From: Escherichia coli
GTDB taxonomy: Bacteria; Pseudomonadota; Gammaproteobacteria; Enterobacterales; Enterobacteriaceae
NCBI RefSeq assembly: GCF_003334765.1
Contig: NZ_QOWT01000103.1
Reading direction: 5' to 3' (one strand)
Length of the DNA stretch: 729 nucleotides
The notes beneath the pieces are model-generated. The model worked only from the letters and a program-made list of their open reading frames with translations. It was not told the DNA's origin and made no database searches. Below, in pieces: positions 1 through 729 of the stretch; positions within the stretch are counted from its first letter, which is position 1, and each line of letters starts with the position of its first letter. The position numbers and the translations under genes were made by a program.

Positions 1-267
1 GTGGATGCCGGGCGACAATTATTATCTTCACAGGGGGATGCAATAAGAAATATTGAGGGATTCGCAGATGGCGGGATCGGCATGTCTTTTGATGCAATCA
101 GAGGGGCTTTTTACGATGCAGGAACACGATCAACGACAATGGCGAATAACACAACTGCTATAGGCAAAACCGATGACCTTGGATTCGACGCCTCTCGTGT
201 CGTGCCAACAGCTAATGAAAACCGTCCACGTAACATCGCCTTTAATTATATTGTGAGGGCTGCATAA
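1..267 (+). CDS. Tail fibre protein, C-terminal (distal tip) fragment; 5' end lies outside the window
   Basis: Frame +1 is open from base 1 to a TAA stop at 265-267. The GTG at 1-3 is most likely an internal Val codon, not a start. The 88 translated residues (…NENRPRNIAFNYIVRAA*) are rich in Gly/Ala/Thr/Asn/Asp and contain no His, Cys or Trp, which suits a fibre tip domain. The main support is context: the stop overlaps the start of a recognisable tfa gene, the canonical fibre-then-chaperone order. Family assignment is from context and composition, not a database hit. Confidence 0.65.
   Translation: MDAGRQLLSSQGDAIRNIEGFADGGIGMSFDAIRGAFYDAGTRSTTMANNTTAIGKTDDLGFDASRVVPTANENRPRNIAFNYIVRAA
254..259 (+). 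promoter_or_regulatory. Shine-Dalgarno-like ribosome binding site for tfa, embedded in the 3' end of the fibre gene
   Basis: TGAGGG at 254-259 (core GAGG 255-258) lies 8 nt upstream of the tfa ATG at 267. With the TAATG overlap this fits translational coupling. Confidence 0.5.
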
Positions 268-729
268 TGAAACCTGTTTTTGATGAAAATGGGCTGGCTA
301 CAGTACCGGGTAATATGCGTTGTTTTTATTATGAGGCAGTTACGTATGAATATACTGGCTGGTCTGATGAATATATTAATACTGGCGTAAGTATGCCCGC
401 CTGTTCCACTGGTATTGACCCGGGCGAATACATTCCGGGAAGAGTGGCAGTATTTACGGGTAAGGGATGGAGCCATGAAGAAGACCATCGCAATGAGACT
501 GTTTACTCAACAGAAAATGGCGCAGCTGTTACAGTGGATTATATCGGTGCCATCAAAGACGGTTATGTCACGCTTTCACCGTTAACGCCATACGATAAAT
601 GGGATGGTGAGAAATGGGTGACGGATACCGAGGCACAGCATAGCGCCGCACTAGACGCGGCAGAAGTAAAGCGCCAGTCGCTGATTGATGCTGCAATGGC
701 TTCCATCAGTCTGATTCAGCTGAAATTAC
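267..729 (+). CDS. tfa: Tail fibre assembly protein (Tfa-type chaperone, Caudovirales tail fibre assembly family); 3' end lies outside the window
   Basis: ATG at 267-269 opens frame +3, which stays open for 154 codons to the window edge (last full codon 726-728). My translation is MKPVFDENGLATVPGNMRCFYYEAVTYEYTGWSDEYINTGVSMPACSTGIDPGEYIPGRVAVFTGKGWSHEEDHRNETVYSTENGAAVTVDYIGAIKDGYVTLSPLTPYDKWDGEKWVTDTEAQHSAALDAAEVKRQSLIDAAMASISLIQLKL. From memory, the stretch …VAVF…W…EDHR..TVY…W.G..WV.DTEA… lines up with lambda Tfa (…[26 protein letters not shown]…YQKWNGTAWVKDTEAEK…KKSLMQ…), and the N-terminal VFDEN motif resembles the IVYDEN motif inside P2 gpG and Mu U. A GAGG at 255-258 sits 8 nt upstream of the ATG. 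Confidence 0.85.
   Translation, partial: MKPVFDENGLATVPGNMRCFYYEAVTYEYTGWSDEYINTGVSMPACSTGIDPGEYIPGRVAVFTGKGWSHEEDHRNETVYSTENGAAVTVDYIGAIKDGYVTLSPLTPYDKWDGEKWVTDTEAQHSAALDAAEVKRQSLIDAAMASISLIQLKL

Follow-up and report, generated by a model that had tools for sequence, protein, structure and literature searches.

A conserved 1-nt stop/start overlap with an internal Shine-Dalgarno motif at a lambda-type fibre/tfa junction, probably carried as a prophage relic in Escherichia coli

Here, we describe the junction between two co-directional phage tail genes in a stretch of 729 nucleotides of Escherichia coli DNA, which in its full length we refer to as the window. The first gene, at 1..267 on the + strand, is the 3' remnant of a tail-fibre gene for a collar-type receptor-binding tip, of which the last 88 codons and the TAA remain; window base 1 opens a GTG, the first possible start codon left in the fibre frame. 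The 88 residues align with the C-terminal end of tail collar fibres (phrog_523, E 1.2e-21; positions 546-638 of the 673 in the profile) and also match several further fibre profiles. In locus L004, where the fibre is intact and 251 aa long, they make up residues 164-251; in intact relatives, this fibre comes after Mu-like baseplate genes. The second gene, at 267..729 on the + strand, is represented by the 5' 154 codons of tfa, which encodes 197 aa in full. Its product is a Caudo_TAP protein (PF02413, E 7e-25, residues 76-193), matches phrog_105, "tail fiber assembly" (E 1.6e-80), and carries precomputed domain matches to PF28596 (Caudo_TAP_N) and PF02413. An earlier note on this DNA had named the pair as a fibre gene followed by the chaperone gene tfa, and these matches bear out both identities.

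Homology to other phages is mosaic along the window. In megablast searches, breakpoints lie at 226, 253 and 579: matches H2-H7 begin at 226 or 253, and matches H8-H25 cover 579-729 only. Position 579 is where the C-terminal domain of Tfa begins (579..729, + strand), a widely shared block matched from there on by many unrelated phages; those that match 579-729 only include HK97, Klebsiella and Salmonella phages, and pro483. According to a published account, which cites North et al. 2019 on this point, Tfa binds the fibre tip via a variable N-terminal domain and trimerises via a conserved C-terminal domain (PMC9608196). The mosaic pattern fits a putative division of the present Tfa, with an N-domain that varies and binds the fibre and a C-terminal domain that is shared.

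The geometry of the junction was read directly from the sequence, in which window positions 251-270 are ttgtgagggc tgcataatga and the junction stretch as a whole is ...attgtgagggctgcaTAATGaaacct... First, the fibre stop codon TAA lies at 265-267 (+ strand), where it ends the frame-1 ORF 1-267 of the ORF list, and the fibre pseudogene annotated by PGAP ends at the same base. Second, the tfa ATG lies at 267-269 in frame 3, which is open from there through the window end. A267 is common to both codons, and the two genes thus have a 1-nt overlap (TAATG, 265-269), one of the −1/−4 stop/start overlaps of co-directional genes. Third, a Shine-Dalgarno (SD)-like GAGG at 255-258 (GAGGG to 259; + strand) lies within the upstream ORF at a functional distance from the tfa ATG, i.e., with an 8-nt spacer formed by bases 259-266 (GCTGCATA), and its duplex with the 16S 3' end (the anti-SD) has a computed energy of −6.1 kcal/mol. 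This GAGG covers the end of a Val codon, GTG, and the Arg codon AGG, which is a rare Arg codon. The tfa initiation region is contained within the final four fibre codons, in an island, GTGAGGGCTGCATAATG (253..269, + strand), whose conservation is considered below. The earlier note had placed the stop codon, the start codon and the GAGG 8 nt upstream at these same positions, and all of its coordinates are right.

The tfa ATG is the first start codon past an in-frame TAA at 243-245, and it is also the PGAP start of WP_000805577.1 (CDS 9267-9860 in L001, a 728/729-identical copy); the tfa start codon is thereby confirmed. An alternative tfa start was rejected because of the in-frame TAA at 243-245, because the next ATG lies 16 codons downstream, and because the phrog_105 match begins at residue 1. 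Similarly, a programmed frameshift or read-through giving a fibre-Tfa fusion was rejected, since no slippery heptamer precedes TAATG and homologues are annotated as two proteins. For ~10% of window positions, an equally good anti-SD match is found at −20 to −4, and the motif by itself is thus weak evidence. The strongest anti-SD match in the window, at 27-40 (CAGGGGGA, −9.4 kcal/mol), is not above chance expectation; it is followed by an ATG at 38-40 with a stop two codons on, and it is overlapped by a 9/12 sigma-70-like match, TTCACA-16-AATATT (27-54), that is not above chance either.

By sequence likeness, we identify bases 253-269 as a lambda-type stf/tfa junction. In lambda, stf (orf-314) and tfa (orf-194) meet in GTGAGGCTTGCATAATG, with the end of orf-314 and the start of tfa both at 21973 (NC_001416), and the stf/tfa junction of HK97 is GTAAGGGCAGTATAATG at position 20204. 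Both phages share with the window the TAATG 1-nt overlap and a GTGAGG or GTAAGG 8 nt upstream. Moreover, in all three, a fibre tip ending in ...NIAFNYIVRxx* is followed by a Caudo_TAP Tfa (fibre C-termini: window, NRPRNIAFNYIVRAA; lambda, NTVKNIAFNYIVRLA; HK97, NRPRNIAFNYIVRAV), and the downstream protein of the window, a member of Caudo_TAP (PF02413)/phrog_105, is the one expected of a lambda-type Stf/Tfa cassette. By contrast, the Tfa N-termini differ (MKPVFDENG... in the window versus MAFRMSEQ... in lambda and MTTKEITL... in HK97), and the fibre tip of the window comes from a short 251-aa fibre of a Mu-like tail rather than from a long lambda Stf. The window also differs from lambda in that the fibre in its locus is truncated by a deletion. 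In lambda PaPa, stf is split by a frameshift; lambda PaPa and the window are thus alike in that the upstream fibre is not intact. The junction is accordingly an already known arrangement, an ordinary −1 overlap with an internal SD. The earlier note had called it common and well understood, and rightly so: lambda and HK97 share it, and co-directional genes are most commonly spaced at −4 or −1, overlaps for which coupling is the usual case in E. coli (PMC6728339, PMC10666635).

Conservation was assessed in a related set made up of the IMG/VR relatives of three Tfa proteins (those of the window, lambda and HK97) and other loci gathered; it comprises 253 loci, in which the junction occurs as 60 different haplotypes and the N-terminus of Tfa is of at least eight unrelated kinds. 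Of the 253 loci, 250 have retained an overlap of −1 or −4, in 221 as TAATG or TGATG (1-nt overlap) and in 29 as ATGA(TG) (4-nt overlap); in one locus, TAA and ATG abut, and in two, the junction is damaged. Among the 44 distinct haplotypes with a −1 overlap, positions −14 to +3 are nearly invariant, and third-position entropy is 0.27-0.53 in the island versus 1.5-1.8 a few codons upstream. At the Arg codon −3, which forms the motif, 42 of these 44 haplotypes have AGG, two have AGA and none has CGN, whereas the Arg codons at −12 and −14 (9 and 11 codons upstream) make use of CGT, CGA, CGC, CGG and AGA. At the last two fibre positions, the residues A, K, L, V and S all occur while the motif nucleotides stay constant, and Tfa codons 2-4 vary as well. 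A low-variability island between variable flanks, together with the rare codon, indicates constraint at the RNA level, and the rare AGG at the third-from-last codon of the fibre is thus kept for RNA-level reasons. Judged from the compared sequences, the arrangement is more than chance, with its conservation as strong evidence, and the island points to a translation initiation region embedded in the end of the fibre gene. Thus, the overlap and the internal SD that the earlier note had described are real, conserved and under nucleotide-level constraint. For the recoding or swapping of fibre tips, e.g., in receptor-binding protein engineering, this means that GTGAGGGCTGCATAATG should be kept or tfa given a new ribosome-binding site.

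Two variants in IMG/VR may serve as natural tests. One is a lambda-type locus in which a premature TAA precedes the junction by eight codons and tfa is intact. In the other, of the window type, the first in-frame ATG of tfa is displaced to an internal Met (MRCFYY...), following an apparent extra T within the first tfa codons. The junction offsets of the two are −24 and −51.

The constraint could also be sought in the protein or in recombination, with the conserved island being kept for the structure of the fibre C-terminal peptide (...NIAFNYIVRAA) or as a homology linker for the shuffling of fibre tips and tfa modules. The peptide NIAFN(Y/F)(I/L)VR is indeed kept at the protein level in all haplotypes, megablast homology breaks at 226 and 253, and stf/tfa regions of defective prophages recombine with lambda (PMC3945230). 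However, constraint on the protein leaves unexplained the exclusive use of AGG/AGA, as neighbouring Arg codons use five synonyms, and it also leaves unexplained the invariant stop/start overlap, as the last two residues vary; a 17-nt island, in turn, is short for homologous recombination. We consider it highly improbable that either of these accounts for the conserved stretch.

For intact phages, translational coupling of tfa to the fibre gene is the most likely mechanism, because the geometry is like that of gene pairs proven to be coupled and because Tfa binds the fibre. In E. coli, four of five overlapping pairs tested were coupled, and removal of the SD lowered reinitiation in four of five (PMC6728339). 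For coupling to occur, the two genes must overlap or lie very close together, and it collapses at ~20 nt; coupled or overlapping pairs are enriched among the subunits of heteromeric complexes (PMC10666635). The window resembles the coupled pairs of Huber et al. 2019, 2023 (PMC6728339, PMC10666635) in its −1 overlap, U[A/G]AUG, and in having an SD within the upstream ORF; it also resembles them in that the products form a complex, given the binding of Tfa to the fibre tip (PMC9608196). It differs from them in that the tested E. coli pairs had a 4-nt ATGA overlap (PMC6728339), whereas the window has a −1 overlap and an upstream ORF that is a relic.

Altogether, we favour, with somewhat better than even confidence, a model whereby the window holds a lambda-type stf/tfa junction at which tfa is likely coupled by reinitiation in the intact phage and which persists in this copy as an inherited relic. 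In the intact phage, fibre and tfa would be carried on one late transcript, often within a Gin/Pin-type invertible segment, and the tfa ribosome-binding site, consisting of the GAGG, the 8-nt spacer and the ATG, sits in the final four fibre codons. Ribosomes ending the fibre would most likely reinitiate on tfa by SD-aided termination-reinitiation, and some de novo initiation on tfa would occur from the same SD. The outcome would be that Tfa is made in step with its client fibre. Both the co-transcription and the actual coupling of the pair are what we infer from this arrangement; in a literature search on tail fibre assembly and translational coupling, no expression data on the pair were found.

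As a possible coupling element, we considered a weak hairpin predicted by the MFE fold at 238..260 (+ strand; seven pairs, two of them G-U) that would sequester the GAGG. As a coupling switch, this hairpin (238-244 with 254-260) was rejected as unsupported. It is no stabler than shuffles (z = −0.25). All seven pairs are kept in only seven of the 44 haplotypes, with no compensatory changes, and the accessibility of the GAGG is 0.28 at the junction versus 0.35 at control GAGG sites, a comparison in which the haplotypes are non-independent. Across the 44 haplotypes, no conserved SD-sequestering structure was found that would enforce dependence on upstream translation, and Rfam gave no match at the junction even at E <= 1.

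Alternatively, ribosomes might bind de novo at the internal GAGG/ATG, in which case the 1-nt overlap would reflect only the compact packing of a phage late operon. In line with such independent initiation, the SD is conserved at the nucleotide level, and an SD can drive de novo initiation in E. coli, as in the case of bioBF, the one of the five tested overlapping pairs that was not coupled (PMC6728339). Likewise, the tfa AUG is unpaired in the predicted fold, a conserved sequestering hairpin is lacking among the haplotypes, and the 197-aa ORF of tfa has remained whole in relic loci in which the fibre is truncated. Close packing is also the rule in the tail operon of the intact relative L004, where most tail-gene junctions overlap (five of eight), three of them by 1 nt; the overlap therefore belongs to general operon packing and is not specific to the chaperone. 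Against independent initiation, the exact −1/−4 overlap is kept in nearly all of the related loci despite variable flanking codons, pure compaction would permit small gaps such as those in Mu and P2, and the overlapping E. coli pairs tested were mostly coupled (PMC6728339). On balance, we regard initiation on tfa that is wholly independent of the fibre as unlikely. The junction distances in the intact Mu-like tail module of L004 (3570-8594) are +24, −4, −1, −1, −14, −10, +3 and −1.

An overlap is not a general property of fibre/chaperone pairs. Unlike the window, Mu S/U and P2 H/G have gaps of 2-3 nt between the fibre and chaperone genes, and in most of the GpG/U-type cassettes that invertible segments carry opposite the window-type cassette, the two genes are 1-3 or 20-26 nt apart. 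Because of these gaps, the overlap cannot be a requirement for such pairs. The earlier note had interpreted the junction as coupling that ties chaperone synthesis to fibre synthesis; the gene pair, the overlap and the internal SD on which this interpretation was built stand, while the specificity for a chaperone does not, and the tie to fibre output fails for this copy, as set out below. A further idea is that the 17-nt island, beyond operon packing, is kept so that chaperoning works in cis, the ribosome that releases a fibre tip starting at once on Tfa, whose N-terminal domain binds that tip. This would explain why the exact overlap is kept in the lambda-type lineage while the flanking codons change and, if true, would mean that each fibre chain gets its chaperone from the same mRNA. 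We put it forward tentatively and hold it to be decidedly unlikely.

Invertible tail-fibre cassettes are known from the G segment of Mu (S/U, S'/U'), the C segment of P1 and the P segment of e14, with the invertases Gin, Cin and Pin. Among 80 IMG/VR relatives of the present cassette, a second, convergent tfa is present in 71, and a Pin/Gin-like serine invertase lies within the retrieved stretch in 55. In SKA5 (L002), a window-like cassette lies in silent orientation between 20-nt inverted crossover sites, adjoining an invertase. The likeness to Mu G-type segments is a feature of these relatives; by contrast, the window's own locus does not qualify as a Gin/Pin-type segment, whose hallmarks are an adjacent serine invertase gene, inverted crossover sites and two convergent fibre-tip/tfa cassettes. 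Neither an invertase nor a second tfa was found at the window's locus or in L003-L010. In segments of the SKA5 type, expression of the fibre tip and tfa depends first on orientation, that is, on transcription from outside the segment. The complete invertible segment of SKA5 spans 5166-7638 and comprises the serine invertase and two convergent fibre-tip/tfa cassettes; its crossover sites are AAAGGTTGGTTTGGGAGAAG at 5796-5815 and the complement at 7619-7638, and the conserved 3' ends of both tfa genes contain a second inverted repeat (6779-6794 and 6907-6922).

The copy in the window is identical over 729/729 positions only to loci L008 and L009, which were found by look-up of the exact Tfa protein sequence and from which the source locus of the window was deduced; the complete E. 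coli genome set held no perfect match, the best being 728/729. Most likely, the window copy stems from a cryptic prophage that resembles CPS-53 and lies between sbcB and dacD. This island contains an integrase, yfdR/yfdS/yfdT homologues, a 95-aa ORF, the fibre fragment, tfa and, on the other strand, a 359-aa ORF, and no other tail genes, late regulators or invertase were found in L008 and L009. A complete fibre gene upstream of tfa is absent in these two loci. Of the gene, the 5' 60%, including the start, is missing, and what is left is a stretch of 102 3'-terminal codons preceded by an in-frame stop; in L008, this stop lies 13 codons upstream of window base 1, and the fibre frame reads "...*CSSSATLRGEFIRGWDDGRG-V(GTG)...", the GTG being window base 1. 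The part homologous to the intact fibre starts ~41 nt upstream of the window, and PGAP treats the fragment as a pseudogene whose N-terminus is missing. The relic has no ATG, and its sole start, the GTG at window base 1, is served by a weak SD of −4.0 kcal/mol; the fibre of intact relatives starts with an ATG that has an SD of −6.1 kcal/mol. By contrast, the near-identical copies in L004, L005 and L007, with 2-3 mismatches to the window, follow complete 251-aa fibres in prophages with Mu-like tails, which suggests that the junction was inherited from a working phage.

Two consequences follow for this copy. First, tfa probably has little translation upstream of it to which it could be coupled. 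Because the fibre is a truncated relic without an ATG, the rationale of the earlier note, in which the amount of chaperone follows the output of fibre, is probably moot here; arguments from fibre/chaperone stoichiometry do not apply to a copy in a decayed prophage. Second, any Tfa made from the relic would need de novo initiation at the internal SD. A related but unlikely reading is that this SD keeps the orphan tfa expressible, as a helper or as a recombination reservoir for superinfecting phages.

A more austere view is that the fibre fragment and tfa are unexpressed debris of a decayed prophage and that the junction has no current function here. The lack of other tail genes, late regulators and an invertase in the exact-match loci, the pseudogene annotation of the fibre and the even more decayed copy that K-12 CPS-53 holds in the tfaS pseudogene all agree with such silence, as does the number of promoter-like matches, which is not above shuffle expectation (three found versus 3.4 expected). 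On the other hand, tfa is still a full-length ORF, and the relic, intact-prophage and metagenome copies differ by few substitutions, of which those in tfa are three at third positions (401, 500, 512) and one Ala/Val change (523); read-through transcription may also occur. In our judgement, the chances of the copy being silent are evenly balanced. An internal tfa promoter in the relic was rejected, as the matches reach only 9/12 of the consensus and are no more frequent than in shuffles.

The neighbouring ORFs bear on the history of the island. The 95-aa hypothetical ORF WP_000141754.1 (window 1-46; 7493-7780 in L008; 8759-9046 in L001) stops at TAA 44-46. It spans the deletion joint and reads the fibre fragment in another frame, and it is apparently a chimera that arose through the deletion that truncated the fibre gene. 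The 359-aa ORF lies just downstream of tfa on the minus strand (8713-9792 in L008), has no Pfam match on record and is found at a site that often holds accessory genes in phages; some copies are shorter, with 271 aa in L001 and 307 aa in L005. For both ORFs, an identity as a defence system was rejected, as neither has PADLOC matches.

Finally, the window's island shares the yfdR-yfdS-yfdT block with CPS-53 (KpLE1) of K-12, at 95.6% identity, but lies between sbcB and dacD, whereas CPS-53 lies at argW. The K-12 tfaS pseudogene (4804-5106 in L255) is a 3' fragment of the same tfa type, 93% identical to the 3' part of the window's tfa, which it matches from position 579 on; both loci are decayed fibre/tfa remnants. 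They differ in that K-12 keeps ~300 bp of this tfa type without the junction, whereas the island of the window has the full tfa and the junction. In CPS-53, tfaS is convergent with yfdK and the yfdL pseudogene, an orientation that suggests that an invertible segment of this kind has decayed even further in K-12.
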